A stretch of DNA of 64,000 nt, from NCBI GenBank assembly GCA_965227515.1, contig CBDDFZ010000002.1:512001-576000 (forward strand), read 5' to 3'. Numbering within the stretch: position 1 is the first letter of the stretch; every line of letters starts with the position of its first letter. The notes under the pieces are model-generated. The model worked only from the letters and a program-made list of their open reading frames with translations, searched no databases and was not told where the DNA came from. The position numbers and the translations under genes are program-made. This document shows, piece after piece, positions 3,793-44,628 of the stretch. Source of the stretch: Alphaproteobacteria bacterium (GTDB lineage Bacteria > Pseudomonadota > Alphaproteobacteria > CALKHQ01).

Positions 3793-3796
3793 GAGC

Positions 3797-6700: not shown

Positions 6701-6880
6701 GTCCTCGCCGGTGCCGACCGCCTCTTCCCAGAACGCGCGGCTGGTGCGCGCGACGGTGTCGAGCGAAAAGCCGAAGTCGAGGAACTGGATGCCGCTGCGC
6801 GGGATAAGGCTGGTCAAACGGCGATACGCCGGAACCGTCTTGAGCATGTTCACGCTGCTGGGTGTTGCCGTCTCTGCCAA
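3797..6880 (-). CDS. srfB: Virulence factor SrfB family protein (Hsp70/actin-like ATPase fold)
   Basis: SGIQFLDFGF N-terminal motif, VDLVLDVGNSRTCGILIE, SSPKRYLWD, WDEASCTQ, SIDIGGGTTDL, LLLSGRPSRFP, YWLDTG C-terminus. Start is either TTG 6880 or ATG 6847. Confidence 0.92.
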   Translation of the reverse strand: MAETATPSSVNMLKTVPAYRRLTSLIPRSGIQFLDFGFSLDTVARTSRAFWEEAVGTGEDVPVNLHCLERDAQTRAYVTKDEDRREIEPSYVINADRALEVYLDQWIPIPYLRIREKAVDDRPVFARGPANWARVRIVQLDAPDRDGNTYRLTLAFDTELTEADDGAPYLTPSPEDARSGQVFALSHDDRDNSWFLTEDWVDEWLYELFIDYRRRLRGGRPVDENDLQWACEHYARYLTLLQVLADLEMFPRIQLVDTDTRPRKYRPINVDLVLDVGNSRTCGILIEADPDDNIDLNNSYVLELRDLCRPHQTYNRPFESRIEFAKPNFGRDHLSRRSGRPNAFNWPLVARVGPEAAWLACHAKGTEGATGMSSPKRYLWDGRPRNQDWRFNGLAAPGSSGANGTNGDRGFEPPVTTGIFVQQMNEDGHPLDDPKLPDTARVPALRSKFSRSSMMIFVLSEIILQALTMVNSAEQRGKRPYEDVPRQLDRVIMTMPTAMPKAERDILRVRADAAVRLLWSSLGWDGSNPNHPRPPKVLLDWDEASCTQMVYLYSEVAQKFQGDIRGFFGIMGRNRPVAASRPAARVTSRIQVADEGPSEAPSLRVASIDIGGGTTDLIITTYRLDGDRTVMPHQEFREGFNIAGDDLLCAVIERHVMPAVTHGLEEAGVGNARTLITQLFGGDWGDQSERDRTLRRQFANRVAVPIGLKLLTEYESYRPIEGNKVDSWTFGQFFDDMPEPTDDDPFMRYLADAARDVGAEDFSLADLQIPVNLAAIDATIRGVIGQVLADMSEIVHLYDCDVLLLSGRPSRFPAIQASVMAKLPVAADRIVAMHQYRVGSWYPFRDVHGRINDPKTTAVVGAMLCALGEGDIEAFSFRSSALRMRSTARFIGEMERTGELRNDKLMFKELDLDNHTGAPPQATFTFEAPTFIGFRQLPVERWPGKPLYWLDYANPRIRKEAKMPLKVTVAMRDQDGDQDEETEGDFEIIDIVDADNTPFRESDLELRLQTLKSEAGYWLDTGIFNIR

Positions 6881-8520: not shown

Positions 8521-8541
8521 GGATGCGATTCCGTCCGTCCC

Positions 8542-9969: not shown

Positions 9970-10113
9970 GACCGGTCTCCGGTCTCGGCGTGATGCATGC
10001 GGCTCTTGTCCATGGCGATCACAATCCTGCTATCCGCCCAATCGAGCCCGGTCCGCCGCCGCCCGGGCCTGAGGGGAATGATGGGCCTCTACTCTTTAGC
10101 CAGCTTGCGCTGG

Positions 10114-10198
10114 AGTCTGCGCCAGCCCTCTCCCCCACCCGGCCGCCCAACAACAGTATCCTGCCTGGGTGGCCGGGTGGGGGAGAGGGCCGGCGCCG
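10114..10198. repeat. Palindromic REP-like element, CCCTC/GAGGG family, copy 2
   Basis: CCCTCTCCCCCACCCGGCCGCCCA ... TGGGTGGCCGGGTGGGGGAGAGGG, loop CAGTATCCTG. Confidence 0.85.
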
Positions 10199-10213
10199 AA
10201 TGAACCAAAATTC

Positions 10214-11656: not shown

Positions 11657-11808
11657 GGGCTCTCGGTCGTCATTCGATTATCGGGAACAATGGCGGCAGA
11701 ATGCGCAACGCGGCACGATAGGCAAGGGATTGCGACGATTTTCGGGCGAAATGGTCGGCATTGCGGCCGGCATGGGCCGGCGATCACTTGCGCGGTTCGC
11801 CCGGCGAC

Positions 11809-14781
11809 TCAGGTCACGACCTTGGGGAAGCTGGGCTTCAGCGTCTTCAGCAGATCGGCCCACTCCAGGACCTTGCTCAACGTGATGTCGACACTGAATC
11901 CCCACAGCACCGCGGCCATGAAATCGTCGAACGTGCCGGCGAAGCTGGGCCTGAAGATCGCAAAGCCGCCCAGAATGACGAACGCGGCGGCGACAAGCGT
12001 CTGTACGGCATTGATCATCCATACCGACTTATGGCGCGCCACCGCCGCCAAATAGCCTTGTGGCGGCAGGACTTGGAGGTCGTGGTCCGCCACACGCGGC
12101 TTGGGATCGGCAACGGTGTATGCCACCGCACGCACCGGCACGCGGCCGAGGCGGTTCGGCGTGAAGGTAAACTTCAAGCCGCCCTCATCCGGGAACTGAG
12201 GTCGGCCATCCACTGACCACTGGATCTTGAAACCCGACGGCACCTCGTCCGTCGCCGGATCGAGCACAGCTTCAATCTCAATCGGCACGTCCTTGTAGGC
12301 GAAATCGGCAACTTCCAACCGGATCGACCACGACGCTTCCGCTTCCTTGTCTTCCGGTTCCGGTTCCGGTTCCCCGCCCGGGAGGCGCAGAGCCGGCAGG
12401 CCAAGCGACGTCAGCGAGAACCTGCCGGCCAGAAGCGATTGCAACTGCAACAATTCGGGTGCCTGTTGAACGGGCGGGGTCAGGGTCTCCAGCGCTGCCA
12501 GGAATTTGCCCTGCTCCAGGTCGTCGGCGCCGGCATGGCCGGCGACTATGCCGGCGGCCTCAAGCGCCTCCGACAACGCAATCCATAGGCCGTTCAAGTT
12601 CTCGACGAGCTTCTGCGTGCCGGGCGTGGCGGCTTCGCTGACGTTGTCCCCCAACGCCTCGATGGCATCGCGCAATTTCTCCACCGGCTTTGTATCGGCG
12701 GTGCCAGACTGGCCTTCCAGCTCCCGCAGCACGGTGCTCGCCGCGGCGTGAATCGAAAGCCCCGCGTGCTGGCGCAGGCGGTAGTCGACATCGCGCCACA
12801 ATCTGGCGAGTGCCGACAGCATCGTCGTGAACTTGGTCGCGTCCTTTACGTTTTTGGCGGTGTCTTCGAAGGCTCCGATCCTGGCAACAATGTCGGCGAC
12901 CGACGTGGCCCATTCCGCCCCGCCGACCTTGATCTCCGGCCACGGCTTGGCTTGTTGCAGCCACAATCGCGCTTGGTCGGCCCACGCGGTGGCGGCATCG
13001 CGGATGGCAGGTATGCGCTGCTTGGCCAGCGACGTGTTGAAGGTCTCAACGCTGCCGAGCACGCCAGTGGCGAGCAGGGTTCGTTGCTGATCCAGCTCGG
13101 TCTGCAGATTGCGAAGGGGTTCTGCGACCACAGGCGGCCACAATCCGGGCGTGCGCAGGGCGGCATCCCACGCGCTTAGCGTCTCGTTCGCTGTCTTCTG
13201 CCGTTCCTTGGCGTTCTCCAAAACCTTGTTCAGTTCCTCTTCGGCGGTGGTCTTGGCATCCGCGATCGAGTCGGTTGATGCCAGCACGCTGTTGATGTTG
13301 CGGGTCAGCTCCTCTCGGACAGCCTGCAACCGGCCGATGATTTCCTTGTCGACCGTCGAATTGATGATGCGGTCGAGCTTGGCCTCGAGCAAATGGGCGG
13401 GGATCATCGCCTCGTTGCGCACACGCATTTTGTTCAGCAGCCAGCGAACGATCAGCCCGAGCAGGACGCCAAAACCGATGGCGAGGATCAGCCAAAGGAA
13501 ATCGAGGCGGGTGGTGATCTCGACCGGGATGGTGATGTCCTGGGCCAGCAGGTCCGAGCGGACCACGATGCGGCCGCTCACGGTGCCGACCTCCAGGTCG
13601 TTCTCAACCGCCAGGGTTGCGTTGCCCTGGTGGTGCGGTGGCGTGACATCGGGAAACGTGACCTTCAGCACCGCGTCCACCGGGTGGGTATCGCTCGACA
13701 CCAGCGCCACCGACAGCTCCGTTTGGACCGGGCTGAAGTACGACTTGCCGCCGGTTTCGGCGAAGACGATCCGGTCGGCGGACATCTCGTCGTCTTCAAG
13801 AACGGCGCTGATGAACTCGATTTTCAGCGGGTCGGTCAGGTCCAGCACGGCCGCCGGGCGCACGATCTTCAGCGACAGCGTATCCACTGGCTTGTCCGCG
13901 CCCGGCAGGTTCACATCGACATCGACGGTGTAGACGCCGGCCGGAACGATGGCGTCCGCCTGCATGGTGACCGACAGCGCCCGCGCGTCCTGGTCCAGCG
14001 CCAACACGACGGTGGCATGGTCGATTTCCTGGTTGTCGCGCTGCACCCGGCGGGTCAGGAATTCCAGCGAGTCCAGATCGATATCGGTGGCGACGATGCG
14101 GACCGGAATGCTGCGCACCACCGGCGCATCGGGGGGCGCGGCCAGGTCCAGCTGGAGGCCGGACTCGCCGACCACGTCCAGCACGTTGTCCGGCAGCGGC
14201 GCGGGCCGCTCGACCGTCAGTGTCACCGTGTCGACCGGCTGCGCCACATCGGCCAGCATCACATCGATGTCTACCGTGTAGGTGCCGGGCGGAAAGATGG
14301 CCGCGGGCTGCATCGTCAGCACCAGCCGCAATTCATCCTGGTTCAGGTCCACCGCGATGGTGGAGACGTCAATGTCCTGGTCGTCGCGGCGCACCCGCCG
14401 GGTGACGAAGTTGACCGTATCGAGGTCGATGTCGGGCGCGGTGATGCGGACCGGGACGTTGCGCACCACCGGCTGGCTGGGCGGCTCGGCCAAGGCCAAG
14501 GTCAGGGTGGGCGTGCCGGCCACCTCCAGAATGTCGTCGGGCGGCGGCGACTCTGGCGCGGCCGGCTGTTCGGTGTCGGCCTGTGGCGGGGCGTCGGCCT
14601 GTGGCGGGGCGTCGGCCTGGTCCGTGTCCTGGGCGCTGGCCGTCCACGATGCCGCTGCGCAAAGCAACAGGCCGGCCAGGCCAGTGCGCGCAATGCCAAC
14701 CAGGCGCCGTCGAATATCCAATGAATCGGATTGGAGAGAATAAAGCGACCGCGAATATGTGCGGCGTTGCGGGATGCCCAT
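11809..14781 (-). CDS. Large hypothetical membrane protein (signal peptide, duplicated beta-rich domains, TM, coiled coil, C-terminal TM segments)
   Basis: 990 aa; signal-like LAGLLLCAAASWTASA; two ~116-aa repeats (GTYTVDIDV / GVYTVDVDV); TM FLWLILAIGFGVLLGLIVRW; hydrophobic C-terminus. Confidence 0.75.
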   Translation of the reverse strand: MGIPQRRTYSRSLYSLQSDSLDIRRRLVGIARTGLAGLLLCAAASWTASAQDTDQADAPPQADAPPQADTEQPAAPESPPPDDILEVAGTPTLTLALAEPPSQPVVRNVPVRITAPDIDLDTVNFVTRRVRRDDQDIDVSTIAVDLNQDELRLVLTMQPAAIFPPGTYTVDIDVMLADVAQPVDTVTLTVERPAPLPDNVLDVVGESGLQLDLAAPPDAPVVRSIPVRIVATDIDLDSLEFLTRRVQRDNQEIDHATVVLALDQDARALSVTMQADAIVPAGVYTVDVDVNLPGADKPVDTLSLKIVRPAAVLDLTDPLKIEFISAVLEDDEMSADRIVFAETGGKSYFSPVQTELSVALVSSDTHPVDAVLKVTFPDVTPPHHQGNATLAVENDLEVGTVSGRIVVRSDLLAQDITIPVEITTRLDFLWLILAIGFGVLLGLIVRWLLNKMRVRNEAMIPAHLLEAKLDRIINSTVDKEIIGRLQAVREELTRNINSVLASTDSIADAKTTAEEELNKVLENAKERQKTANETLSAWDAALRTPGLWPPVVAEPLRNLQTELDQQRTLLATGVLGSVETFNTSLAKQRIPAIRDAATAWADQARLWLQQAKPWPEIKVGGAEWATSVADIVARIGAFEDTAKNVKDATKFTTMLSALARLWRDVDYRLRQHAGLSIHAAASTVLRELEGQSGTADTKPVEKLRDAIEALGDNVSEAATPGTQKLVENLNGLWIALSEALEAAGIVAGHAGADDLEQGKFLAALETLTPPVQQAPELLQLQSLLAGRFSLTSLGLPALRLPGGEPEPEPEDKEAEASWSIRLEVADFAYKDVPIEIEAVLDPATDEVPSGFKIQWSVDGRPQFPDEGGLKFTFTPNRLGRVPVRAVAYTVADPKPRVADHDLQVLPPQGYLAAVARHKSVWMINAVQTLVAAAFVILGGFAIFRPSFAGTFDDFMAAVLWGFSVDITLSKVLEWADLLKTLKPSFPKVVT

Positions 14782-20593: not shown

Positions 20594-20692
20594 GTGGTGG
20601 TCGTGTGGGTCGCATGCAGCTTGCGAAGCCTCCTTGCTGACTTCCCCCGATTGACTTCCGGGACGGCGGGGACCAGACTCCCGTTCACAACA

Positions 20693-20779
20693 TGGCTGGG
20701 GTGTCCGTGGCCGATGGCGGCGACGGGCTGAGATCACACCCATCGAACCTGATCTGGATCATGCCAGCGCAGGGAGCCC
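20693..20779 (+). ncRNA. TPP (THI-box) riboswitch
   Basis: GGCTGGGGTG...GGGCTGAGATCACACCC ATCGAACCTGATCTGGATCATGCCAGCGCAGGGAGCC carries the conserved CTGAGA, ACCTGAT and GCGnAGGGA elements; P1 GGCT/AGCC. Confidence 0.92.
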
Positions 20780-20810
20780 GACCGGACCGCGACAGAACGC
20801 ACCTCCGGAC

Positions 20811-20864: not shown

Positions 20865-20870
20865 TTGAAC

Positions 20871-22022
20871 ATGCTTATCCGGACGACACGTATGTGCGGG
20901 ATCGCCGCGATGGCCGCATTCGCCCTTGCCACATCCGCCATTGGCGCCGGCCAGGCCGCGGCCGAGGACATCTCGCTGCCGATCCTGGTGCCGATCACCG
21001 GCTTCCTGGCGCTGGAGGGGACCAGCCAGCGCAATGGCGCGCTTTTGGCGCTGGAGAATCTGCCCGCGTCCCTGACCGTCGAGGCGGAGGTCACCGACAC
21101 CGGCACGTCGCCGGAGGGCGCGGTCACCGCGTTCGAGCGCGCGCTCAGCGGTGGCAGCCCGCTCGCCATGGTCGCGCCGATGCTGGGCACCCAGATGCTG
21201 GCCATCCTGCCGCTGGCCGCCGACTACGAGGTGCCGCTGATCACCATCTCCGGCACCGCCGCGATCACAGAGCAGGGCAACCCCTGGATCTTTCGCTTCT
21301 TTCCCGGCGACGCGGTGGTGAAGGTGGCGCACGCCCGCTATGCGGTGGAGGAGGTCGGCATGGCGGCGCCCGCGATCATCTACCAGACCACCGCCTATGG
21401 GCAGAGCGGCCACGCCCATCTGGTCGAGAACCTGACCGTGCTTGGCGCCGCCCCGGTGCTGGAAGAAGGCATCGCCACCGATGTGCGCGAGATGGCGCCC
21501 GTGCTGGCCCGCGCGCAGGAGGCCGGCGCCGACGGCCTGATCCTCCACCTGCACGCCGGGTCGACCGCGCTGGTCATCCGCCAGGCCCGCGCCATGGGTT
21601 GGGACGTGCCGATTGTCGCCGGCTCCGCCATGCACCAGCCGTCGACCGCCGCGCTGCTGGAGCCGGCCGAGCTTGCCGGCGTGTGCGCCGAGACCGGGTC
21701 GTCGCCGATCTCCGGCGGCTCGCCCGAGATCGAGGCTTGGGCCGCGCGCTACCAGGAGCGCTTCGACGGGCCGCCCGACGCCTTCGCGCTGGCCCAGTAT
21801 GATGCAGTGCGCATCGTGCTCCAGGCGGCGGCCGATGGCGTGACCTCGCCCGAGGCGTTGCGCGACTGGCTGGGCCATTTCAGCACGCCGGGGCTCGCCA
21901 TGACCTACAAGTCGGACGGCACCGGCAACATGGCCCATGACGCGGTGATCATCTGCTACGGCGGCGAGGACCGGGTGCCGGAGATCGTGAAGCGCTACGA
22001 GAACGTCGACGGCGTGCTGTAG
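20871..22022 (+). CDS. HAAT/Liv-family ABC transporter substrate-binding protein
   Basis: Signal peptide; PITGFLALEG, NPWIFRF, YGQSG and YDAV motifs of LivJ-type binding proteins. Confidence 0.9.
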   Translation: MLIRTTRMCGIAAMAAFALATSAIGAGQAAAEDISLPILVPITGFLALEGTSQRNGALLALENLPASLTVEAEVTDTGTSPEGAVTAFERALSGGSPLAMVAPMLGTQMLAILPLAADYEVPLITISGTAAITEQGNPWIFRFFPGDAVVKVAHARYAVEEVGMAAPAIIYQTTAYGQSGHAHLVENLTVLGAAPVLEEGIATDVREMAPVLARAQEAGADGLILHLHAGSTALVIRQARAMGWDVPIVAGSAMHQPSTAALLEPAELAGVCAETGSSPISGGSPEIEAWAARYQERFDGPPDAFALAQYDAVRIVLQAAADGVTSPEALRDWLGHFSTPGLAMTYKSDGTGNMAHDAVIICYGGEDRVPEIVKRYENVDGVL

Positions 22023-22041
22023 CGCGCGGCAAGCTGCCGCC

Positions 22042-22917
22042 ATGCTCACCGTCCAGCTCATCGCCAACTGCCTGGCGCTGGGGGCCGCCTACACGCTGGC
22101 CGCCCTCGGCTTCGTGCTGATCCTGAACGCGGTCAGCGCGGTTAACTTCGCCCATGGCGACCTGGTGGTCTCCGGCGGGCTGCTGGCGGCGGCGACCGCC
22201 AGCGCGGTGCCGCTGCCCGGCATCGCATTGCTGCCTGCGATCATGCTGGCGATGGCCTTCGTTGGCCTGGTGGTCGCCGTTGTCGCCTACTTGCCGCTGA
22301 GGCGGCAGCCGCCGGTCAGCGTGTTCGTCAGCACCATCGCGGTCGGCATCATCCTGCAGAACGGGCTGCTCGGCGCGTTCGGGCCGGAGCCGCAGAGCGT
22401 GCCGGCGATGCTGCCGGCCATGCTGCCGGCCACTGGCAGCGTGGCCGGTGTCTCGGTGCAGCAGGTCGCTGTCATTGCCGCCGCGGCGGTGCTGGTGGCC
22501 GGGCTGTGGGCGCTGCTGGAGCGCACCCAGATCGGCCGCCGGCTGCGCGCCAGTGCCCAGGACCCAGACATGGCCCGCGCGCTCGGCATCCCGGTCCGCC
22601 GCATGGTGCTGCTGAGCTTCGCCTTGGCGGCGGCGCTGGCGGGTGCCGCCGGTGTGCTGCTGGGCCACAATTTCTTCATGGAGCCGCACCAGGGCACCGA
22701 CTTCATGCTGAAGGCCTATATCGCCGTCACCATCGGCGGCTGGGGGCGGCTGAGCGGGGCGGTGCTCGGCGCCATGATCATCGCCGCGTTCGAGGTGCTG
22801 GTGGCGGCCTGGATCTCCTACACCGCCGGGCAGGTGGCACTCTATGCCGCGCTGCTGCTGGTGCTGATGGTGCGGCCGCACGGCCTGATGGGCGAAGTCG
22901 CCTACCGCCGGGCATGA
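22042..22917 (+). CDS. HAAT ABC transporter permease (LivH-like)
   Basis: ALGFVLI...VNFAHGD, TQIGRRLRASAQDPDMARALGI, IGGWG. Confidence 0.92.
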   Translation: MLTVQLIANCLALGAAYTLAALGFVLILNAVSAVNFAHGDLVVSGGLLAAATASAVPLPGIALLPAIMLAMAFVGLVVAVVAYLPLRRQPPVSVFVSTIAVGIILQNGLLGAFGPEPQSVPAMLPAMLPATGSVAGVSVQQVAVIAAAAVLVAGLWALLERTQIGRRLRASAQDPDMARALGIPVRRMVLLSFALAAALAGAAGVLLGHNFFMEPHQGTDFMLKAYIAVTIGGWGRLSGAVLGAMIIAAFEVLVAAWISYTAGQVALYAALLLVLMVRPHGLMGEVAYRRA

Positions 22918-24638
22918 GCGCGCGCGCCGGCACGGCCGTCGACATTGGCGCGGGCATCGTTGCCGCCCTGCTGATCGCCGCGGCGGCCCTGTTCGGCGAT
23001 CCCTACACCCAGCGCGTGCTGACCATCGCCGGCGTCTACGCCATCAACGTCATCGGCTACCAGCTTGTGTTCGGCCACCTGGGCGCGCTGTCGCTGGCAC
23101 AGGGCGCCTTCTTCGGCCTCGGCGCCTACACCACCAGCCTGCTGGCGCTGAACGCCGGCCTGCCGTTCCCGTTGACGCTCGCCGCATCCGTGGCGGTGCC
23201 GACGCTGCTGGCGGCGGTGATCGCGCTGCCGGTACTGCGCCTGGAGTCGCACTATTTCGCGCTCGCCACCCTCGGCATCGCGCAAGTGATCCTGGTCGTC
23301 GCAGTCAACTGGACGGCGGTGACGGGCGGCGCCAATGGGCTGCCCAACGTGCCCGGCATCGCGTTCGGCGAGGTGCCGCTGGGGCGTGGCTGGCCGACCA
23401 TGCTGGCGGTGTGGACGGGTGTCGTGGTGGTCGCGGTGGCCGCGCTGGCCTGGCTGCGGCCGCGCCGCCGGCTGGCGCTGGGGCTCGCGCGGCAACAGCC
23501 GATGGCCGCCGCCGCTGTCGGCATCGACATCGCGCGCCTGCGCTTCGCCGCCTTCCTGATGAGCGCGGCCTGCGGCGGGGTGGCGGGCGCGCTCTACGTC
23601 CATACCACGCGGGTGATCTCGCCCGACGCGCTCGGCTTCTCGGTGATGGTGACCACGCTCGCCATGACGGTGATCGGTGGCCGCCTGCGCATCGCCGGTG
23701 CCCTGATCGGCGCGCTGTTGTTGGCCCACGTGCCGGAGTGGCTGCGCTTCCTGGGCCAGTATTATCTGATCGCCTATGGCGTGGCTTTGCTTGCCTTCGT
23801 GGTGCTGGCGCCGGACGGGATCGCCGGCTGGCTCGCGCGCCTGGTGCCTGTCGGCAAGCCATCCCATGTCGGAGAGCCGCCCAGTGCCCCACACCCTGTG
23901 CCGGCGGCGGCGTCGCTGGCGGGCCCGGTGCTGGCGGCGGCGCAGGTCTGCAAGCACTATGGCGGCGTGTGGGCGGTCGATGGCGTCGATCTTGAGGTCG
24001 GCGCCGGCGAGGTCCACGGCATCATCGGCGCCAACGGATCGGGCAAGACGACGCTGCTGAACTGCCTCGGCGGCACGGTCCGCGCCGATGGCGGCACGAT
24101 CCAATTCTGCGGTGAGGACATCACCGCCTGGTCCGCCGACCGCCGCGCCCGCGACGGCATCGCGCGCGCATTCCAGACCTCGATGTTGCTGGAGGGCGAG
24201 ACCGTGCGCGACAACGTCGCGGCTGGGTGGCTGGGCGAGGGCGGCCTCGATGGCGCGCGCGCCGAGGCCGATGCGGTACTCGCCCGCTGCGGCTTGGCCG
24301 GTGCGGGGGACAGCGCGGCGGGTGAGCTGCCGATGGCCCTGCGCCGCCGGGTCGAGATCGCCCGCGCGCTGGTCGGCCGGCCCCGGCTGGTGCTGCTGGA
24401 CGAGCCCGCCGCCGGCCTGACCGAGGGCGAGCAGGAGATCCTGGCCGACATGATCGCCGGGGCCGCGACGAACGGTGTCGCCTGGATCGTCGTCGACCAC
24501 CATCTGCCGTTCCTCCGCCGGGTCGCCGGCCGGTTGCACTGTATGGCCGAGGGTCATGTGATCGCCAGTGGCGCACCCGATGCGGTGCTGGACGACCCGG
24601 CGGTGCGGCGCGGTTATTTCGGCGAGGCGTCCCCATGA
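22914..24638 (+). CDS. HAAT ABC transporter permease/ATPase fusion (LivM-LivG-like)
   Basis: ATGA overlap start; LSLAQGAFFGLGAY, YFALATL; then IIGANGSGKTT and LLDEPAAGL. Confidence 0.9.
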   Translation: MSARAGTAVDIGAGIVAALLIAAAALFGDPYTQRVLTIAGVYAINVIGYQLVFGHLGALSLAQGAFFGLGAYTTSLLALNAGLPFPLTLAASVAVPTLLAAVIALPVLRLESHYFALATLGIAQVILVVAVNWTAVTGGANGLPNVPGIAFGEVPLGRGWPTMLAVWTGVVVVAVAALAWLRPRRRLALGLARQQPMAAAAVGIDIARLRFAAFLMSAACGGVAGALYVHTTRVISPDALGFSVMVTTLAMTVIGGRLRIAGALIGALLLAHVPEWLRFLGQYYLIAYGVALLAFVVLAPDGIAGWLARLVPVGKPSHVGEPPSAPHPVPAAASLAGPVLAAAQVCKHYGGVWAVDGVDLEVGAGEVHGIIGANGSGKTTLLNCLGGTVRADGGTIQFCGEDITAWSADRRARDGIARAFQTSMLLEGETVRDNVAAGWLGEGGLDGARAEADAVLARCGLAGAGDSAAGELPMALRRRVEIARALVGRPRLVLLDEPAAGLTEGEQEILADMIAGAATNGVAWIVVDHHLPFLRRVAGRLHCMAEGHVIASGAPDAVLDDPAVRRGYFGEASP

Positions 24639-25273
24639 GCCCGATCGGCGCCGTGCTGGACATTCGCGGGCTGGAGGTGCGCCGTGGCGGCGCGCCGGTG
24701 CTGGACGGGTTCTCGCTCGATGTGGAGGGGGGAGCGCTGGTCGCGGTGGTTGGCCCGAACGGCGCCGGCAAGTCGACGCTGCTGCAGGCGGCCATGGGCC
24801 TGCTGCCCGTGTCCGGCGGGTTCGTTGCGCTGGCTGGCCGCGATATCACGAGACTGCCGCCCGAGGCACGGGCGCGGGCCGGCATCGGCTATGTGCCGGA
24901 GGGCAGGCGGGTCTTTCCCGGCATGACCGTGCGCGACAATTTCATGGTCGCGGCCGATTGCGCGGCGGCCGCGCGGGCGGAGCGCCTGGATCGGGTGCTG
25001 GCCCTGTTCGGCGGGCTGCGCGCCAAGCTGGAGGACCGGGCGTGGACGCTCTCCGGTGGCCAGCAGCAGATGGTCGCCATCGGTCGCGCGCTGATGACGG
25101 CACCGCGCCTGCTCCTGCTCGACGAGCCGACCCTGGGGCTTGCGCCCGCGCTGGCCGGCGAGGTGATGGCCCAACTGCGCCGCATCGCCGACGAGGGCAC
25201 CGCCGTGCTGGTCGCCGAGCAGAACGTCGCCGCCGTGAAGCCCTGGGCGGATCGGCTGGTTGAATTGAATTAG
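24635..25273 (+). CDS. HAAT ABC transporter ATPase (LivF-like), short C-terminus
   Basis: GPNGAGKST, YVPEGRRVF, LSGGQQQMVAIGRAL, DEPTLGLAP, EQN. Confidence 0.9.
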   Translation: MSPIGAVLDIRGLEVRRGGAPVLDGFSLDVEGGALVAVVGPNGAGKSTLLQAAMGLLPVSGGFVALAGRDITRLPPEARARAGIGYVPEGRRVFPGMTVRDNFMVAADCAAAARAERLDRVLALFGGLRAKLEDRAWTLSGGQQQMVAIGRALMTAPRLLLLDEPTLGLAPALAGEVMAQLRRIADEGTAVLVAEQNVAAVKPWADRLVELN

Positions 25274-36847: not shown

Positions 36848-38089
36848 ATGTATTCATCGCTTTCCGACCTTGTTACGCTTGGCGCGCGCGGCGTTGCCGA
36901 AACCGGTGACGACGCAGCAGCGGCGGAGTTCACCCTCGGCGCGCACCGCAGCGTGCCGCCGGCCGAAACGCTCGCCCGGATAGAGCCGGAGAAGGCGCGC
37001 TACGGCATCACGCGGGTGGCGCGGGTCACCGGGCTCGACCGCATCGGCATCGAGGTCTTCATGGTGGTGCGGCCGAACCAGTACGGGCTGGCCGTCACCC
37101 AGGGCAAGGGTGTCACCCGAGAGGCGGCGCGGGTCTCCGGCCTGATGGAGGCGATGGAATTCTGGCACGCCGAGCGGCCCGACTTGCCGCTGCGCCACGC
37201 CACCGCGCGCGATCTCGCCCGGCACTACCGGATGCCGCCGATGGCCGCCCTGCCGCTGGTCGGCGCGCCGCCATCGGATACGGTTCCGCTGTTCTGGGCA
37301 ATGGCGACCGACCTGTTCACCGGCGATACGGTGCCGGTGCCCTACGACCTGGTCCATGCCTGCTTCCTGGAGGACGACCGTGCGGCGGAGTCGCCGTTCC
37401 AGATCTCAACCAACGGGCTCGCCTCCGGCAACTCGATGCTGGAAGCGGCGACCCATGCCGCCAGCGAGCTGGTGGAGCGCGACCAGATCATCCGCTTCGA
37501 CCGGCGCGAGGCAGCGTCGCGGGAGGCGGCGCGGATCGATCTCGCCAGCGTCGACACACCCTACCTCGCCGAGCTGATCGGCCGGGTCGCCGCCGCCGAG
37601 ATGTCGGTGGCGCTGTGGGACATGACCAACGCATGGGGTGTGCCGGGCTACATCTGCCAGATCGTCGACACCACAGCACACCCCGGGCCGCCCGGCATGG
37701 GGGCCGGGTGCCATCCGCGCCGCGACGTGGCCGCCGCCCGCGCGATCACCGAGGCGGCGCAGTCGCGGCTGACCCGCATTTCAGGTGCGCGCGACGACCT
37801 GACCGGGCGCCTGTTCGGCGGCGCGATCCAGACCCGCACCCTGTGGCTGAACCAGCGCGCCGGCGAGGCGGCCGAGGCAACACCGCAAGCGTTTGCCAGC
37901 GGCGTGGACCTGTCGGCCAGCGGCCTGGAGGCGGAGTACCTGGCCGTGCTGGGCGCCCTGCGCGCGGCCGGGCTGGAGATGCTGCTGGCGGTCGACCTGG
38001 CGCCCGACGCGCCGTTCAGCGTGGTCCGGCTGATCGCGCCCGGCGTGCTCGGCATGCTGTCCGGGGCCGTGGCGGGTGCGAACGGATGA
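36848..38089 (+). CDS. ycaO: YcaO family protein (TfuA-associated, thioamide-forming type)
   Basis: GITRVARVTGLDRIGI, QGKG, SGLMEAME, STNGLASGN...EA...ELVERD, GAGCH, AITEAAQSRLTRISGARDD; no C-terminal PxP. Confidence 0.93.
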   Translation: MYSSLSDLVTLGARGVAETGDDAAAAEFTLGAHRSVPPAETLARIEPEKARYGITRVARVTGLDRIGIEVFMVVRPNQYGLAVTQGKGVTREAARVSGLMEAMEFWHAERPDLPLRHATARDLARHYRMPPMAALPLVGAPPSDTVPLFWAMATDLFTGDTVPVPYDLVHACFLEDDRAAESPFQISTNGLASGNSMLEAATHAASELVERDQIIRFDRREAASREAARIDLASVDTPYLAELIGRVAAAEMSVALWDMTNAWGVPGYICQIVDTTAHPGPPGMGAGCHPRRDVAAARAITEAAQSRLTRISGARDDLTGRLFGGAIQTRTLWLNQRAGEAAEATPQAFASGVDLSASGLEAEYLAVLGALRAAGLEMLLAVDLAPDAPFSVVRLIAPGVLGMLSGAVAGANG

Positions 38090-39447
38090 GCGACGCACCC
38101 ACCGCCGTCGTCTTCATCGGGCCGAGCCGGGGGCGCACCCCGCTGGACGTGCCCGGGAACGTGCGCCTGGCGCCGCCGGCGGCGTTCGGCGATCTCTATC
38201 GCGCGGCGCGGGCCGGGGTCGGGCGTATCGGGCTGGTCGACGCGGTGTTCGAGGACCAGCCCACGGTCTGGCACAACGAGATCCTGTGGGCGCTGGACCA
38301 TGGCGTCGAGGTCTATGGCGGCGCCAGCATGGGCGCGCTCAGGGCGGCGGAATGCGCGCCGTTCGGCATGATCGGGGTCGGCGCGATCTTCGAGATGTAC
38401 CGCGACGGCACGCTGGAGGACGATCACGAGGTGGCGGTGCTGCACGGACCGGCCGACCTGGACCACATGCCGCTGACCGAGCCTTTGGTGAACGTGCGGG
38501 CCACGCTTGCCGCCGCCCGCGATGCCGGCGTGCTGACGCCGGACGAGGCGGAGGCGATGCTGGGTAAGGCGCACGACCGCTACTACAAGACCCTGACCTG
38601 GGCGAGCCTGCTGGACGATGCGCAGCTCGGCGGGCTGTCGGCGGCGGCGGACCGGCTCGCGCCATGGCTGCCGAGCGGGCGCATCGACCTGAAGCGCAAC
38701 GACGCGCAGGCGCTGATCGCGCGGGTGTCGTCCGACCCGCCGCCCGCGCCAGAAGCGGGCAAGACCACGCCGTCCTTCTTCAATGTCACCTCGTTCTGGA
38801 GCCACGCCGCCGACCTGCTGGACGATGCCGGCGCCGCGCTCAGCGATGGCGAGCGGCTGGTGCTGGACGAGATGCGGCTGGACCCTGCCGCCTATCGCCG
38901 GGCGCTGCTGCGCGCCTTCGCACGGCGCAACGCGGTGGCCGAGGACGGGTCCGCGGCGGCCGCCATCGACGGGTTCCGCGAGGCTGCCGGCCTGATGAGC
39001 GCACAGGATTATGCCGCCTGGTGCGCCGCGCACCATGTGGCCCGGCCCGACCTGGAACGTGCGGTCGCCGAGGATGAGGGCCTGGAGGCGACATTGGATG
39101 ACATGGCGGCCGAGCTTGCCGCCGATATCGTGATGGAGGCGCGGCTGTCCGGGCGCTACCCACGCCTGCACGCCCGCGCCATGGCGAAGCTGCGGGCGCT
39201 GGACCGCGCGGGCGACGTCGGCCCTGCGCTGTCGCTGGGGCAGCTCCTCGACTGGTTCGCCGCCACACGCGGGACCGATGTTGTGCCCGAGGAGGCGGAT
39301 GATTTCGCCCGCGGTCTCGGTCTGCCGGACAGGAACGCGCTGCACGATCTTCTGCTGCGGGAGTATGTGTCCGACGGCGCGGCCGAGCCCTCTGGGCCGG
39401 ACAGCAGCAGTTCGATGAGCGAACCCGGCCGTCGAGGGGGCGCATAA
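38086..39447 (+). CDS. tfuA: TfuA-like protein with C-terminal helical extension
   Basis: ATGA overlap with ycaO; VVFIGPS, GDL, VWHNEIL, GGASMGALRAAEC, GMIGVG, DDHEVA, EPLVNVRATL, DLKRNDA. Confidence 0.93.
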   Translation: MSDAPTAVVFIGPSRGRTPLDVPGNVRLAPPAAFGDLYRAARAGVGRIGLVDAVFEDQPTVWHNEILWALDHGVEVYGGASMGALRAAECAPFGMIGVGAIFEMYRDGTLEDDHEVAVLHGPADLDHMPLTEPLVNVRATLAAARDAGVLTPDEAEAMLGKAHDRYYKTLTWASLLDDAQLGGLSAAADRLAPWLPSGRIDLKRNDAQALIARVSSDPPPAPEAGKTTPSFFNVTSFWSHAADLLDDAGAALSDGERLVLDEMRLDPAAYRRALLRAFARRNAVAEDGSAAAAIDGFREAAGLMSAQDYAAWCAAHHVARPDLERAVAEDEGLEATLDDMAAELAADIVMEARLSGRYPRLHARAMAKLRALDRAGDVGPALSLGQLLDWFAATRGTDVVPEEADDFARGLGLPDRNALHDLLLREYVSDGAAEPSGPDSSSSMSEPGRRGGA

Positions 39448-39549: not shown

Positions 39550-40275
39550 ATGTCTGAGGATCATGCGGCCGGTGCGCCCCGTGTGGAATTTGTCAACGCC
39601 AGCCGTGGCGTTTCGGCACAGAAAGAAAACTGTGCGCTCTGCTCCGCCGCGGGCGCCGTGAACCTCACGATCGGATCCAGCAGGTATTCGTCAAACGATG
39701 TCGCCAGCCTGACCGGTGTGGCCACGGCGGGCGCTTTCGCGGCAGTCGCCGGCCACGAAGAGGCGATCATCGCGTTTGTGGAGGCGAAGACGCAGCCGTC
39801 ACGAACGGCGGCGTCGATCGTGGAAACGGGCACACCGCTTGCCGATGCTATCGACGCTATGCTGGCCCAGCCTATCGGGACGGTCTTCGTTCTTCACCTC
39901 AGCGGCAAGACTGTCGCCTCGGTCGACGATCCGAACACCAACAGCCATTGGCTGAACGCCATCCTGGTCGAGAATGGGGGTGCCGGAGAACTCCGCTACT
40001 TCGATTTCCAGACCAACCGCAAGCTGCCGAACGCTGAGCGCAGCAGGTTTCTCAGGTCATGGGTCGGGGGAGCCAATCCCTCGTCGTCGTTGGCACCGTT
40101 CATCGGCATCGTCGGCCAGGCCGAGCTGAGTTTCGAGAAGCGGAGGCTCGGCGGCATTGGCCAGGAACTCGATGAAGGCGCGCACCGCACCATGCATGCC
40201 GCTCACCAGGCCGGGACCTTTCTGCCCGAAACGACGACGGCGCAAACAATACTGGCGTTTCCACCGGCCGGTTGA
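39550..40275 (+). CDS. Papain-fold (Tox-PL-like) cysteine peptidase/deamidase-like protein
   Basis: GGAG RBS; ENCALC, SHWLNA and YFDFQ give a C-H-D triad pattern. Confidence 0.6.
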   Translation: MSEDHAAGAPRVEFVNASRGVSAQKENCALCSAAGAVNLTIGSSRYSSNDVASLTGVATAGAFAAVAGHEEAIIAFVEAKTQPSRTAASIVETGTPLADAIDAMLAQPIGTVFVLHLSGKTVASVDDPNTNSHWLNAILVENGGAGELRYFDFQTNRKLPNAERSRFLRSWVGGANPSSSLAPFIGIVGQAELSFEKRRLGGIGQELDEGAHRTMHAAHQAGTFLPETTTAQTILAFPPAG

Positions 40276-40356: not shown

Positions 40357-41721
40357 TTGATATGCCTGCAATATCTCGCAAATGGAAGTGTCGTATTGCC
40401 CAACACATACACCAGCACGTTTCCGGGCCATAAGCACGGTAATCACATCCCCGGCGGGACCAGGTTCCGCATCTTTCCGCAGGCCCCGCTGACCGACCGC
40501 ATGCCGCCGCTGGAGACGGTGACGGTTTCCTCGCCGGCCGGATCGCTCGGCCCCGGTCCGTCCGACGACCGCATGTACGCCATCGTGCCGCTGGGCGGGC
40601 CGACGCCCTATGGCGTGACGCCGGGCCGTCGCGGCATGGAGCTGAACCTGCCGCCGTGGCGCGGCTCCATCGTCCCGCCGGCAGCACCTTCGCCCGCCGG
40701 CCATTTCGACCATGTGCCGGTCACCTCCCCGCAGTTCCCGGCTGTGCATATGTTTGGCGTCGCGCGGTTCACCCTCGACGTCTGGGAGCGTTATCTCGGC
40801 GGTCCGGTGGCCTGGCATTTCGACGACCTGCTGGACCGCCTGGAACTCTCGACAGTGCCCGGCTGGCGCAACGCGCAGATGGGCTTCGGCTTTCTTCAGG
40901 CCGGTGAGCGGCCGGGACCGGACGGGCTGATCGACGAGTATGCCCTCAACTTCGATGTCATCGCGCACGAGATCGGCCACGCGCTGCTGCTGGCGCTGGA
41001 GGGGCCGTTCGACCGCCATGCCGGCACCTGGGACTACGAGGCGTTCCACGAGATGTCGTCCGACTGGGTGGCGCTGATCACCCTGCTGCACCTCGACACG
41101 GTGGTGGATGCGCTGCTCGACGGCACCTCGGGCAATCTCGACACCTACAACCAGCTCAGCCGGTTCGCCGAGCTGTCCGACAACGAACAGATCAGGCTGG
41201 CCAACAACAAGCTGACGCTGGATGACTTCCGCGACGGCTGGCACGACGAGCACGATATCGCCAAGCCGCTGATCGGCGCGTTCTTCGACTACTTCATCGA
41301 CCTCTACCACGAGCTGTTGGTGGAGCGCGGCGCCATCTCGCCGGAACTGGAAATGCTGGCCGACGCGGCCGAGCGCGACCCCGCGCTGCTGGACGATGTG
41401 CAACGCGGGTTCGAGGCTGCCTACGCGGCCCGGCGGGGCGAATTCCGGCGCGCCCTGGATGACGCGCGCGACATGGCGGCGATGGTGATGATCGACCTGT
41501 GGGGCAGCGTCGACCCGGAGCGCGACGTATTCGCCGACATCGCGGCGTTCTTCGAGACCCGCAACCTGGGCGCGAGTGAGGCGGATCGCATCCATGCGCG
41601 GATCGCCCGCACCCAGTTGGAGCGCCGCGGCATCGGCCGGGTGCCGCTGGGGCCGCGGTTCGAGGAACCGCCCCACGACAGCCATACCCGGTCGTCCCGT
41701 TTGGTGTTGCCTGTAGGCTAG
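40357..41721 (+). CDS. Gluzincin zinc metallopeptidase (M4/M36-like)
   Basis: WRNAQ, DVIAHEIGH, AFHEMSSD (HExxH plus ExxxD), EHD; start uncertain (TTG 40357 or 40396). Confidence 0.8.
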   Translation: MICLQYLANGSVVLPNTYTSTFPGHKHGNHIPGGTRFRIFPQAPLTDRMPPLETVTVSSPAGSLGPGPSDDRMYAIVPLGGPTPYGVTPGRRGMELNLPPWRGSIVPPAAPSPAGHFDHVPVTSPQFPAVHMFGVARFTLDVWERYLGGPVAWHFDDLLDRLELSTVPGWRNAQMGFGFLQAGERPGPDGLIDEYALNFDVIAHEIGHALLLALEGPFDRHAGTWDYEAFHEMSSDWVALITLLHLDTVVDALLDGTSGNLDTYNQLSRFAELSDNEQIRLANNKLTLDDFRDGWHDEHDIAKPLIGAFFDYFIDLYHELLVERGAISPELEMLADAAERDPALLDDVQRGFEAAYAARRGEFRRALDDARDMAAMVMIDLWGSVDPERDVFADIAAFFETRNLGASEADRIHARIARTQLERRGIGRVPLGPRFEEPPHDSHTRSSRLVLPVG

Positions 41722-41726: not shown

Positions 41727-41746
41727 TGGTTAATTTGCGTTAACCA
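41727..41746. promoter_or_regulatory. Perfect palindrome TGGTTAA-N6-TTAACCA upstream of the repeat-tailed gene
   Basis: Seen directly in the AT-rich intergenic gap, about 35 bp before ATG 41781. Confidence 0.5.
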
Positions 41747-41780: not shown

Positions 41781-42446
41781 ATGGCGACAAATTACGGCTC
41801 GGGTAACTTCGATACATTGTTGTCCGATACTAGTGTCCGGCTGTTCGGCCGGGAGATGTTCGACATCAAGCTGGCCGGCAATCGCGACGAAGCCTACGAC
41901 TACAAGGGCGGCAACGACACCCCGCCGCCGGCCGTTCACTCCAGCAACAATTTCCTGCTCCATCAACTTAAGCGGGAAGATGCGCGCTTGGCGCGGATCT
42001 ACAGTTTCTCGTTCCAGAACCAGATCTTCGACCTGATGAAGCCGGCGCTGTTTGTCGTGCACGGCGAGGGCAACGTCCCCGACCCGCCGGAAATCCAGTT
42101 CAGCGCGACCGACGTGAGCACCCGCCGCGGCATCAAGCCGGCGATCACGGTCCGCTCCGGTGTGTCCGGTCAGGACGCACGGTTCACCGAAGACATCCGC
42201 ATGTGGCTCTATGACATCGCCGACTTCACCGTACGGCTGGACATGGAGGCGGGACCGTTCGAGCGCGTGCTGCTGGAGTTCGAGCTTGGCGGCCCGGGCA
42301 GCTTCGATGCCGGTGCGACCGCCGGTGGCGCTGCGGGCTGGACCGCTGGCGGTGCCGCGGGGTGGACCGCGGGCGGCGCGGCAGGGCCCAGGCGCGGCCC
42401 GCGGCAGCGCTATCGCCGGGGTCGCTGGCGCGGCGACGACGAGTAG
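41781..42446 (+). CDS. Hypothetical protein with C-terminal (TAGGAAG-W) repeats; candidate YcaO/TfuA substrate
   Basis: Strong RBS GGGGGAG; 221 aa; C-terminus ATAGGAAGWTAGGAAGWTAGGAAGP followed by an Arg-rich tail. Confidence 0.8.
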   Translation: MATNYGSGNFDTLLSDTSVRLFGREMFDIKLAGNRDEAYDYKGGNDTPPPAVHSSNNFLLHQLKREDARLARIYSFSFQNQIFDLMKPALFVVHGEGNVPDPPEIQFSATDVSTRRGIKPAITVRSGVSGQDARFTEDIRMWLYDIADFTVRLDMEAGPFERVLLEFELGGPGSFDAGATAGGAAGWTAGGAAGWTAGGAAGPRRGPRQRYRRGRWRGDDE

Positions 42447-42502
42447 GTCGCCGCTCCCGCGCCGGTTTGGCGGCTGCCTCCTGCGGTCACATCCATATTG
42501 GT

Positions 42503-42611
42503 GTCATCCTTGACCGAAGCCCGAAGGGCGAGTGTTGAGGATCCATTTCAGTTATCGCGCAAGAGGCGAAATGGATCCTCGGCGCTCGGCTTCGCCTCGG
42601 CCAAGGATGAC
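42503..42611. repeat. CGTC-type palindromic repeat variant
   Basis: GTCATCCTTGACCGAAG...GAGGATCCATTTC ... GAAATGGATCCTC...CCAAGGATGAC. Confidence 0.75.
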
Positions 42612-42704
42612 AATGAAAGGATTGACGATCCCCAGCAATCCTTGGCCGGTCTGACGCGATGAAGTGTCGAGGCCGAGGGTGACTCGGGTTTTGTGTCCGT
42701 TGCT

Positions 42705-44450
42705 CTAAAGGCCCGCCCGCCGCAGCCCCTCGGCATAGATTTCCCGCGCCCGCGGGTTCTTGTCCGGCACCACCGACACCCAGGTGTCGACGTCGAAGTC
42801 CGGCTCGTTGGCACGGATGCGCCGCGCCCAGTCGCCAGCCTCCTGCGCGCGCCCCAATTGCGCGTGGCTCGCCGCCATCACGTAGCGCACGATGGCCGGG
42901 TTCTCCATCGACTTCCCGAAGCGGATCGCGGTGTCGTAGTCCTCCAGGAAGAAGTACGCGCAGGCCAGGTCGCGCAAGTAGTTCTCGCGGCCGAACGGGT
43001 TCAGGCGCATCGCGTGCTCGTACTGCGCGATACCCTCGTGCGCGCGCCCGCCGTGGGTCAGCGTGTCGCCATACTCGGCGATGACGTCGGCGTCGCTGGG
43101 GTTCAGTTCCAGCGCCCGCTCATAGGCCGCCAGCGAGCGGTCGTGGTCGCGCAGGTAGAGCGAGACGAAACCCAGTTCCACGTGCCCGCTGGGATCGTTC
43201 AGGTCCATGTCGATGGCATATTGCGCGCGCGACTGGGCCTGGTGGATGTTGTTGTCGCGGTCGTCGACCCAGGCATATTTCCAGTTCAGGCAGTGCGCCC
43301 GCGCTGCCACCGCGTGGGCGCGCGAGTAGTGCGGGTCGAGGGACGTCGCCTGGTCGACGAAACGCAGGGCGCGCCCGGTTGCCGCCGCGTTGAACTGGTC
43401 GATCTCGTGACGGCCGCGCAGCATCAGGGCATAGGCGCCCAGCGATTCGGGCGCCCTGGCGCGGGCCAGCGCGCGTTCGCGTGCCTCGATCTGCACCGCC
43501 ATCGCTGACACCGCGCACTGGGCGATGTCCTCCTGCACGTCGAACACGTCCTCGAACGTGCGGTCGTAGGTCTCGGCCCAGATCACCTTGTCATGCAGCG
43601 CGTCGAGCAGGCGCACCTTGACCCGCATGCGCTTGCCGGACACCTGCACCCGGCCCCGTGCGAGATAGCGAGAATTCAGGCGCCGGCCGATGGCGTCGTC
43701 GGCAATCGGCGTGCCGCCGACCTTGCCGGACGACTCGCGCGACGTCACATCCAGGCTGCGGAAGCGCGTCAGGTAGCCAATGATCTCGTCGTCGAAACCG
43801 TCGGCGACCGTGAACAGCTCCTGCTCCATGGCCGCGACTTCGAACGGGAGCACGGCGACGGAGGGCTGGGCCTGGCGCTCCAGCGGATCGTCGGCCAGAT
43901 GACCGTTCATCACCACTGGCGCCGGCGGCGGTGCATCGTCGCTGACGCGCACCCGGTAGATCGTGATCTCGTCGCCGATGTTCTTCAGCTCGGGGTTGCC
44001 CATCGCCTCGAACGTCAGGTCTTGCGCGGTGTCCAGGGCCGCGCGCACCTCCCCGCTGACGCAAACGCCGCCGGCCTCGGCCACGCCCTCCAGCCGGGCC
44101 GCGACGGTGACCGCGTGGCCCAGCAGTTGCTCGCCGCTCTCGAAGGTCTCGCCCATATGGATGCCGATGCGGAACCGCACCGGGCTGCCGTCGCCCGGCG
44201 GCCGATCCAGGTTGCCGGCCTGGGTCTGGATCGTCAGCGCGCAGCGCACCGCCCGCTCGACACTGTCGAATGTGGCGAACACGCCGTCGCCGAAATACCG
44301 CTCGACCTTGCCGTCGAAATTCCACACCAGCGCACGAATGGTGCGGGTGACATGGTTGATGGCCTCGACCGACGCGACCTCGTCGGCCTTCATACGCGCG
44401 CTGAACGCCACCGCATCTACGAAGACGAGCGCTTTTAGTTGCCGTTTCAT
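42705..44450 (-). CDS. Class III nucleotidyl cyclase domain + TolB_N-like + TPR protein
   Basis: VFVDAVAFS, GDGVFATF, FRIGIHMG, AARLE, LKNI; PSVAVLPF; TPR repeats (ALELNPS, AMRLNP). Confidence 0.9.
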   Translation of the reverse strand: MKRQLKALVFVDAVAFSARMKADEVASVEAINHVTRTIRALVWNFDGKVERYFGDGVFATFDSVERAVRCALTIQTQAGNLDRPPGDGSPVRFRIGIHMGETFESGEQLLGHAVTVAARLEGVAEAGGVCVSGEVRAALDTAQDLTFEAMGNPELKNIGDEITIYRVRVSDDAPPPAPVVMNGHLADDPLERQAQPSVAVLPFEVAAMEQELFTVADGFDDEIIGYLTRFRSLDVTSRESSGKVGGTPIADDAIGRRLNSRYLARGRVQVSGKRMRVKVRLLDALHDKVIWAETYDRTFEDVFDVQEDIAQCAVSAMAVQIEARERALARARAPESLGAYALMLRGRHEIDQFNAAATGRALRFVDQATSLDPHYSRAHAVAARAHCLNWKYAWVDDRDNNIHQAQSRAQYAIDMDLNDPSGHVELGFVSLYLRDHDRSLAAYERALELNPSDADVIAEYGDTLTHGGRAHEGIAQYEHAMRLNPFGRENYLRDLACAYFFLEDYDTAIRFGKSMENPAIVRYVMAASHAQLGRAQEAGDWARRIRANEPDFDVDTWVSVVPDKNPRAREIYAEGLRRAGL

Positions 44451-44628
44451 GGGCAGACGCCGGTATTTGGCAGGTATCGCCAAATGAGACCACATTCGGT
44501 CCTCAGATTCAATTGTTGCTGCATATTTGCCGGGGGCTGATGTCGCAAAAACGCAGTACTTCGATGCTCTGGGAATGCGGATCGGGCCGGATTTGCCGAC
44601 CGGAGGCGTCTCGAAGCGTCTTGCGGGG

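Follow-up and report, generated by a model that had tools for sequence, protein, structure and literature searches.

What is the function of a protein that ends in three copies of one short peptide and is encoded beside enzymes known to modify peptide backbones? This question is raised by a locus in the genome of an Alphaproteobacteria bacterium (assembly GCA_965227515.1, contig CBDDFZ010000002.1, positions 512,001 to 576,000 of the forward strand). The whole stretch of 64,000 nucleotides that was analysed is called the window here, and all coordinates refer to it. The open reading frame (ORF) 41781-42446 on the forward strand encodes a product of 221 amino acids, which was named P0001 and carries three TAGGAAG heptapeptides close to its end. 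The analysis described below indicates that P0001 is probably one member of a widespread, undescribed family of repeat-tailed substrates belonging to a gene module of a YcaO enzyme with its TfuA partner, a protease and a nucleotidyl cyclase. By analogy with described systems, this module probably makes sulfur-modified peptides. We consider it moderately probable that P0001 serves a pathway of thioamidation and proteolysis as its multi-core precursor or substrate.

The C-terminus of P0001 reads ...ATAGGAAG-W-TAGGAAG-W-TAGGAAG-PRRGPRQRYRRGRWRGDDE. The three identical heptapeptides, which are candidate core peptides, are spaced by tryptophan with an 8-residue period and are encoded by positions 42318-42386 (+), exactly as given in the preliminary description of this DNA. 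They are followed by the basic follower PRRGPRQRYRRGRWRGDDE with its Arg-rich end (42387-42443, +). Tandem Repeats Finder places the array at 42317-42387 (period 24, 2.9 copies, 78% matches, score 84). Compared pairwise, the three units differ in 5, 5 and 4 of 7 codons. All these differences are synonymous and fall on third positions; at least 8 substitutions are required to produce them, with 0 residue changes. Because the codons of the units are all four-fold degenerate, so that one site in three is synonymous, the chance of 8 synonymous substitutions out of 8 is ~1.5e-4 by our own arithmetic, i.e. (1/3)^8. With codons drawn at random from the local usage, units would be expected to differ at 3.9 of 7 codons, and 4–5 of 7 are seen to differ; therefore the synonymous sites of the window units are saturated. 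The ORF 41781-42446 has a composition of the coding type (GC content at third codon positions, GC3, 0.83), and that of the overlapping ORF 42160-42513 is not coding-type (GC2 0.80, GC3 0.72). The array is spanned without insertions or deletions by contigs of two closely related strains (X2 and X3, at a depth of only 3–5), and the differences of these strains within the P0001 coding sequence are synonymous in 7 of 7 cases (4 in the array and 3 elsewhere). The repeat in P0001 is confirmed and lies far beyond chance.

Gly/Ala-rich and GC-rich sequence is prone to replication slippage, and a functionless low-complexity tail generated in this way in a GC-rich gene would also appear as a period of 24 nucleotides in Tandem Repeats Finder. 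Recent slippage, however, would leave copies identical at the DNA level, and the units of the window differ in most of their codons without any change of residue. The same is seen throughout the family described below, where only 2 of 177 pairs of adjacent units are identical in DNA and synonymous differences outnumber non-synonymous ones about tenfold; moreover, the same three units are kept in the two related strains. Slippage without function is excluded for practical purposes because of this codon pattern, and we regard such an origin of the tail as extremely improbable. The view of the preliminary description, an old repeat under purifying selection, is borne out by the saturated synonymous sites of the window as well as by the family-wide codon counts.

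P0001 consists of a folded N-terminal domain (N-domain, residues ~13-170) and a tail (residues ~177-221). In the structural model, built with 48 sequences, the N-domain is beta-rich, with blocks reaching a predicted local distance difference test score (pLDDT) of up to 93. Residues 180-221 remain below 50, and the tail is accordingly predicted to be disordered; a disordered tail would be accessible to enzymes. Neither Pfam (searched also with E up to 10) nor NCBIfam, including its curated precursor models (NHLP, Nif11), contains a family that matches P0001. Searches with the fold of the N-domain gave no match at E<=1e-3 in the PDB (Foldseek) or in BFVD, a collection of viral predicted structures, and no usable match in the ESM Atlas; the best hit of the wide VIA search was a GroES chain with Z 2.9, and the family profile of the domain found nothing below E 0.39 among PDB sequences. 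Weak structural matches of the N-domain recur on GroES chains and on proteins of the alcohol dehydrogenase type (best Z 2.9; Foldseek E at least 0.6). These model-based matches are far below significance and give a hint at a GroES-like beta-barrel, to be taken as a lead only.

Relatives of P0001 are numerous. A word-indexed search retrieved 10 homologues, and a scan of one genome per species gave 102 relatives; 80 loci among them were retained. When 1.84 billion representatives were searched with a profile, 654 sequences were returned at E<=1e-3, 510 at E<=1e-10 and 272 at E<=1e-30. The hosts of the 80 loci are mostly Alphaproteobacteria (Rhizobium, Mesorhizobium, Roseibium, Paracoccus, Lichenifustis and many metagenome-assembled genomes), with a few Gammaproteobacteria, one genome labelled Chloroflexota and one labelled Acidobacteriota. 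Alignments reveal three conserved blocks of the N-terminal part (ETLLS..I.LFGR; ARIY.FS.EG....L..PA.FLVHG.G; D.R.W.YDK.DFS.RLD...G.FE.ILL) and no sequence conserved across the family in the tail that follows. In sequence and synteny, the family combines a conserved part with a hypervariable tail and is encoded beside modifying enzymes, as is characteristic of precursors of peptides that are synthesized ribosomally and modified post-translationally (RiPPs).

The tails were compared among 81 locus proteins of at least 120 amino acids, the window's included, and an array was defined as at least 2.5 tandem copies. Tandem-array tails are present in 59 of the 81 proteins and have units of 4–8 residues, with periods of 4 (n=2), 5 (n=20), 6 (n=14), 7 (n=22) and 8 (n=1, the window). 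By the same criterion, arrays are found in 98 of the 149 best library representatives, and many others carry imperfect repeats. The units include SGAGV (up to 9 copies), SGANL, LSSGAS, SGSDLR, GMNAR, SGAKV, GGGKV, AGGHAR, SSGGR, SRAELA, SRMAMA, SFGQNA and GYNV. The sequence of the unit varies freely between lineages while the N-domain stays conserved, and relatives that share the SGAGV unit have 5, 7, 8, 8 and 9 copies of it. Such variation in the number of identical units is the hallmark of a multi-core precursor. The design with a leader and several cores, suggested in the preliminary description from the window alone, is thus supported by homologues that join a conserved domain of ~170 residues to hypervariable tandem-repeat tails, and by the predicted disorder of the tail next to a folded domain. 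As regards composition, a hydrophobic residue is present in 53 of the 59 units, Gly in 52 and a basic residue in 38, and Cys is present in none; Cys-free units fit thioamidation rather than thiazoline formation.

The codon pattern of the window is repeated on the scale of the family. Over all arrays, 1104 codon pairs are the same, 1254 differ synonymously and 134 non-synonymously, with only 27.4% of the possible single-base changes in the arrays being synonymous. The synonymous differences (1254 of 2303 comparable pairs) can be set against 1456 expected at full randomisation, which corresponds to ~86% of saturation. At one unit position of some arrays the serine codons AGC and TCN alternate, a switch that needs passage via a non-serine codon or a double change. 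Selection against DNA repeats as such was considered and rejected: fewer pairs differ than the 1456 expected, and expectation is exceeded in 16 of 59 arrays. The pattern reflects simple age, and the arrays are not over-dispersed. As a separate observation, the tails of two proteins (L065 and L033) read as if frameshifted within the array; in L065, GVSGAGVS is followed by an Arg/Gly/Gln-rich reading, and the protease ORF of this locus is truncated as well. Decay of these copies or errors of assembly may be the cause.

The genetic surroundings of the family were compared by tblastn of the window proteins against the 80 loci. YcaO and TfuA are both found in 51 of 80 loci, which agrees with the tie to YcaO proposed earlier; 17 loci have none within 10 kb on both sides, in 11 the flank is too short to judge, and one, at a contig edge, has just one of the pair. 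A protease gene is present in 74 of 80 loci and a gene combining a cyclase with tetratricopeptide repeats (TPR) in 70 of 80. All-against-all clustering of the ORFs from 82 other loci (L002-L083) and the window yielded no additional family occurring in over 25 loci; therefore no conserved exporter or other tailoring enzyme belongs to the module.

In the window, the YcaO gene lies at 36848-38089 (+) and encodes an ATP-dependent backbone-activating enzyme (PF02624, E 5.7e-64, 216.9 bits vs a cut-off of 25.7), which matches the profile over its full length (positions 1-324 of 325) and has a GC3 of 0.89. Its best NCBIfam match is TIGR03266, a family for thioamidation of the McrA glycine (E 1.5e-56), which scores 192 bits and so falls below the cut-off of 365 bits. 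The TfuA gene follows directly at 38086-39447 (+), as expected of a YcaO-TfuA pair, and its ATG (38086) overlaps the YcaO stop codon as ATGA, so that the two genes are translationally coupled. TfuA is of a long form, comprising the TfuA domain (residues ~2-216; PF07812, E 1e-43) and a conserved C-terminal extension of ~235 amino acids. The best NCBIfam match has E 2.4e-50 and 171 bits, below the equivalog cut-off of 235 bits, and a profile of 22 TfuA homologues matches the TfuA structure 6xp8 in the PDB (1.9e-65) over profile positions 2-216 only. The extension matches no known family in Pfam and the PDB; in related loci it is alignable up to query residue ~430, and the long form is alignable over ~420 residues in most loci. 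On the other strand upstream of YcaO lie DsbA-like and PfkB-like genes, and therefore the gene unit starts at 36848. TfuA-associated YcaO proteins are established thioamide-forming pairs (PMC6511847, PMC5589413, PMC8120280).

The neighbour of P0001 on the same strand (40357-41721, +; 454 amino acids, start codon uncertain) is, by its predicted fold, a thermolysin-like (gluzincin) zinc metalloprotease. The model (pLDDT 85.3, predicted template modelling score, pTM, 0.89) has as its top Foldseek matches thermolysin 4tnl (E 4.9e-6, prob 1.0), gentlyase, aureolysin, vibriolysin and M36 fungalysins, at 10–19% identity to the PDB entries. The residues H204, E205, H208, E232 and D236 do not vary among 40 homologues and form HExxH (HEIGH in the window) and ExxxD motifs, which we take to be the zinc-ligand motif of thermolysin. 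Of 77 homologous ORFs, 74 contain HExxH, and those without it are a 109-aa fragment (L029), a partial ORF (L057) and L050. No Pfam peptidase model is reached at threshold, the sole weak match being Reprolysin_4 (E 0.16), and therefore the enzyme is called thermolysin-like rather than a member of M4. The ESM Atlas contains only unnamed clusters for it, with Peptidase_M4 or M36 on ~10% of their members. A prediction of the complex between the protease and the P0001 family scored 0.02 vs a mark of 0.32, which gives no verdict and is evidence neither way.

Convergent with P0001 lies the gene of a 596-aa protein (42705-44495, -) that consists of a class III nucleotidyl cyclase domain (PF00211, residues 23-180, E 3.3e-7, 30.5 bits vs a cut-off of 21.9), a middle domain and a region matching TPR families (residues 437-527). 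In an alignment of 60 cyclase-TPR proteins both metal-binding Asp residues are conserved in 59, an Arg in 60 and an Asn in 55; these columns are presumably the metal Asp, transition-state Asn and Arg of the catalytic centre. The window protein has both Asp residues and the Arg. A reading of the locus as a defence system was rejected: PADLOC gave only weak generic matches for the cyclase (PycC) and TPR parts and no effector.

From these components the following pathway can be proposed. The folded N-domain of ~170 residues would be the recognition or 'leader' part read by the enzymes of the module, and the disordered tail would be the variable core, with three TAGGAAG(W) copies ahead of an Arg-rich follower in the case of the window. 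We infer that modification takes place in the tail, where YcaO and the long TfuA would exchange backbone amide oxygens for sulfur and form thioamides. The cytoplasmic thermolysin-like zinc protease would then cut the tail and free several copies of a short peptide, and the cyclase-TPR protein may act as regulator or sensor of the module.

A number of observations weigh against this role of P0001. The first concerns the closest kin of the protein: its six nearest relatives (L004-L008, L014) have no repeats, and repeat-free near relatives occur among the library representatives too (P0033, P0098, P0101, P0126, P0140). Tails of the near relatives contain one Gly-rich variable stretch, often with prolines, and then an Arg-rich ...RRxRWR... 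end with acidic residues after it; this end and the acidic residues are common to the nearest relatives of the window protein and the five library representatives. The closest relative, P0002 (51% identity), has a single TAGGMTG at the position of the three TAGGAAG, and the window protein is longer than P0002 by exactly 16 residues. In a quick tree of 79 rows, computed with the last 40 residues of each row cut and without L050 and L075 (shorter than 140 aa) and the frameshift-like L033 and L065, the window protein pairs with L004 (SH-like approximate likelihood ratio test, SH-aLRT, 80). The array of the window arose inside a normally single-copy subfamily, and its age is sufficient for its synonymous sites to be saturated. 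In the window's own taxonomic family, two genomes have AGGHAR x4 and GGGKV x5 instead.

The second group of such observations concerns the leader and the fate of the product. A folded leader of 170 residues is unusual, as leaders are normally short peptides, and the ORF clustering found no conserved exporter in the module, so that a secreted product would have no obvious exit route. A dedicated export or immunity gene, common though not obligatory in RiPP clusters, was likewise absent from the families conserved with the module; the neighbouring ABC genes of the window are of the sugar type (SBP_bac_1, BPD_transp_1) and are not conserved with it. A crude hydropathy scan of the six window proteins from YcaO to the cyclase found no signal-like or membrane-like segment, and all of them look cytoplasmic. 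Because no exporter was found, the proteins look cytoplasmic and the cyclase-TPR protein persists, two other explanations stay alive. According to one of them, P0001 is a whole protein that becomes thioamidated: the tail would stay on the N-domain, its modified repeats would form a structural, metal-binding or interaction surface, and the protease would only trim the protein or turn it over. A well conserved, confidently folded N-domain, far larger than usual leaders, would suit such a protein, and thioamidation of proteins by YcaO is established for McrA (PMC5589413) and uL16 (PMC13063428). Against this stand the dedicated protease that accompanies the gene in nearly all loci, the presence of identical short units in 5–9 copies among close relatives, as in multi-core precursors, and the free change of the units between lineages whose N-domain is conserved. 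We consider a modified whole protein unlikely.

Two further points against the precursor role come from the module itself. Two Paracoccus loci (L077, L080) have no match to the protease while YcaO, TfuA and the cyclase are present; here the repeat protein follows directly after TfuA, and the tail in L077 has many GMS(V/A)x units. Conversely, 17 loci of the Rhizobium/Mesorhizobium type (L009-L013, L016, L018-L021, L023-L027, L034 and L054) keep the protease, the repeat protein and the cyclase and lack YcaO/TfuA within 10 kb. In the quick tree these loci and L017 make up a single clade of 18 rows (SH-aLRT 98), in which the order of genes is cyclase-TPR, protease, repeat protein on one strand, and the units are imperfect (SRSGGAL / SRSGGVM / SRSGGF...) or SSGGR x5-6. 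Unrelated metabolic genes surround the trio in one of these loci. Of five genomes of this clade, four encode short TfuA homologues elsewhere, which match only query residues 5-240 of the long TfuA. Thioamidation is therefore not essential to the core module; the protease, the repeat protein and the cyclase-TPR protein make up a core that persists without a dedicated thioamidation pair.

The other explanation is a peptide-to-second-messenger circuit in which the units, free or tethered, would be ligands of the TPR part of the cyclase and thioamidation would be an optional tuning. The module would then serve signalling and not the making of an antibiotic-like product. TPR proteins bind peptides of 4–8 residues, the size of the units. 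Apart from the protease, no partner is as constant as the cyclase-TPR gene, which is retained both in the clade without YcaO and in the Paracoccus loci without protease; its catalytic residues are conserved across the alignment. On the other hand, regulators often adjoin biosynthetic genes without sensing the product, and no cyclase match is seen in three long-flanked loci (L056, L071, L074). Furthermore, the cyclase of the window has Thr at residue 130, the position of the conserved Asn (..V-N-x-A-A-R..), and is the only one among 60 to carry Thr there; this is a point against the precursor reading as well, and the substitution may weaken the activity of the window cyclase. Taken as a whole, a circuit of this kind seems rather doubtful to us. 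Its most specific form would be a cytoplasmic device in which peptides of 4–8 residues cut by the protease from the dedicated multi-copy precursor are read by the TPR domain of the cyclase and turned into a cyclic nucleotide signal, with thioamidation by YcaO and TfuA in most lineages making the peptides protease-resistant or more specific. We put this device forward tentatively and do not expect it to be the likely outcome.

Several other features of the window should be mentioned. Between TfuA and the protease lies orf241 (39550-40275, +), a conserved hypothetical gene for 241 amino acids that gave no tblastn match in the 82 other loci and is inserted at this place in the window only. Elsewhere the gene is rare, with ten homologues that include one from a Pseudomonas genome, and their alignment shows N27, C28 and C31 (N-C-x-x-C), H133 (H133-W-L-N) and D152 as invariant. 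No match was obtained in Pfam, NCBIfam, PADLOC or the PDB; from sequence, the invariant residues look like a catalytic Cys-His-Asp set. In the 59-nt gap between the protease and P0001, the palindrome TGGTTAA-TTTGCG-TTAACCA (41727-41746) stands upstream of a GGGGGAG site that resembles a ribosome-binding site. In the convergent stretch separating P0001 from the cyclase gene there are two inverted repeats, one with 21-nt arms that are 86% complementary (42529-42588), which is absent from the terminator scan, and one with 11-nt arms at 100% (42598-42648); neither is followed by a T-run. The counts of the promoter and terminator scan were near those of shuffled sequence, and Rfam gave nothing within the gene cluster. 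Farther away, a thiamine pyrophosphate (TPP) riboswitch (RF00059, 63.8 bits; 20687-20792, +) precedes a periplasmic-binding-protein/ABC transporter operon (20865-25273), and two large genes at 1132-6880 (-) match SrfB (E 0) and Virul_Fac (PF10139, E 1.7e-264), with unannotated large ORFs and a protein with a von Willebrand factor A (VWA) domain upstream of them (7012-14781).

A full-text literature search found no paper describing the P0001 precursor family or its combination of genes. All characterised bacterial peptides thioamidated by YcaO-TfuA come from Actinobacteria, and a survey of thioamidation from 2021 lists more than 1000 proteobacterial TfuA clusters whose products are not known (PMC8120280); a search of the main text of this survey found no mention of repeats, adenylate cyclase or tetratricopeptide proteins. 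For one large group of such clusters, the P0001 family offers a definite substrate that can be put to the test. Precursors of ~200 amino acids would be missed by genome mining for short peptides. The hosts are mostly soil, plant-associated and marine Alphaproteobacteria and include cultured strains of Roseibium, Mesorhizobium, Paracoccus and Lichenifustis; the clade without YcaO and the single-copy relatives provide natural points of comparison. If the precursor role is true, the family represents a new class of precursor with a new protease partner, and its tie to a cyclase may point to backbone thioamides in signalling rather than antibiosis. If the units are indeed signals, Gram-negative bacteria would here possess a form of peptide sensing whose signal includes backbone thioamides.

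The module can be compared with several known systems. The archaeal YcaO-TfuA pair that forms thioglycine in McrA (TIGR03266/NF033432; PMC5589413) provides the best NCBIfam matches of the window pair, and its target is the backbone amide of Gly, while the window units are Gly/Ala-rich. McrA, however, is a large enzyme with a single modified site, no protease and no repeats, unlike the module of the window. The protease has the predicted fold of M4 thermolysin and M36 fungalysin in common with these families, as well as HExxH and a downstream ExxxD, but it lacks a signal peptide and a propeptide, is cytoplasmic and is genetically tied to one substrate gene. Cyanobactins and the fungal phomopsin (named in PMC6511847) resemble the family in having several short cores per precursor with varying copy number; their chemistry differs, and here the units abut with no conserved recognition sequences between the cores.

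The closest described system is thiovarsolin of Streptomyces varsoviensis (VarA, the YcaO protein VarY and the TfuA protein VarT; PMC6511847). In both cases a YcaO-TfuA pair stands beside a precursor with short C-terminal repeats. Members of the VarA family have 0–5 repeats, each of which gives a thioamidated tripeptide through YcaO-TfuA (PMC6511847), and the P0001 family likewise ranges from repeat-free to repeat-bearing proteins. By architecture, the only level at which the two were compared, the VarA peptide is short and its repeats are imperfect, whereas P0001 has a folded N-domain of 170 residues and perfect repeats. The var cluster contains no protease, and host peptidases were invoked for cleavage (PMC6511847), in contrast to the dedicated thermolysin-like protease encoded here. 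The accessory genes of var (heme-oxygenase-like, ATP-grasp, amidinotransferase and major facilitator superfamily proteins) are absent from the present module, and the hosts are Actinobacteria for var and mostly Alphaproteobacteria here. The extension of ~235 amino acids on TfuA and the conserved cyclase-TPR gene set the module of P0001 further apart from var.

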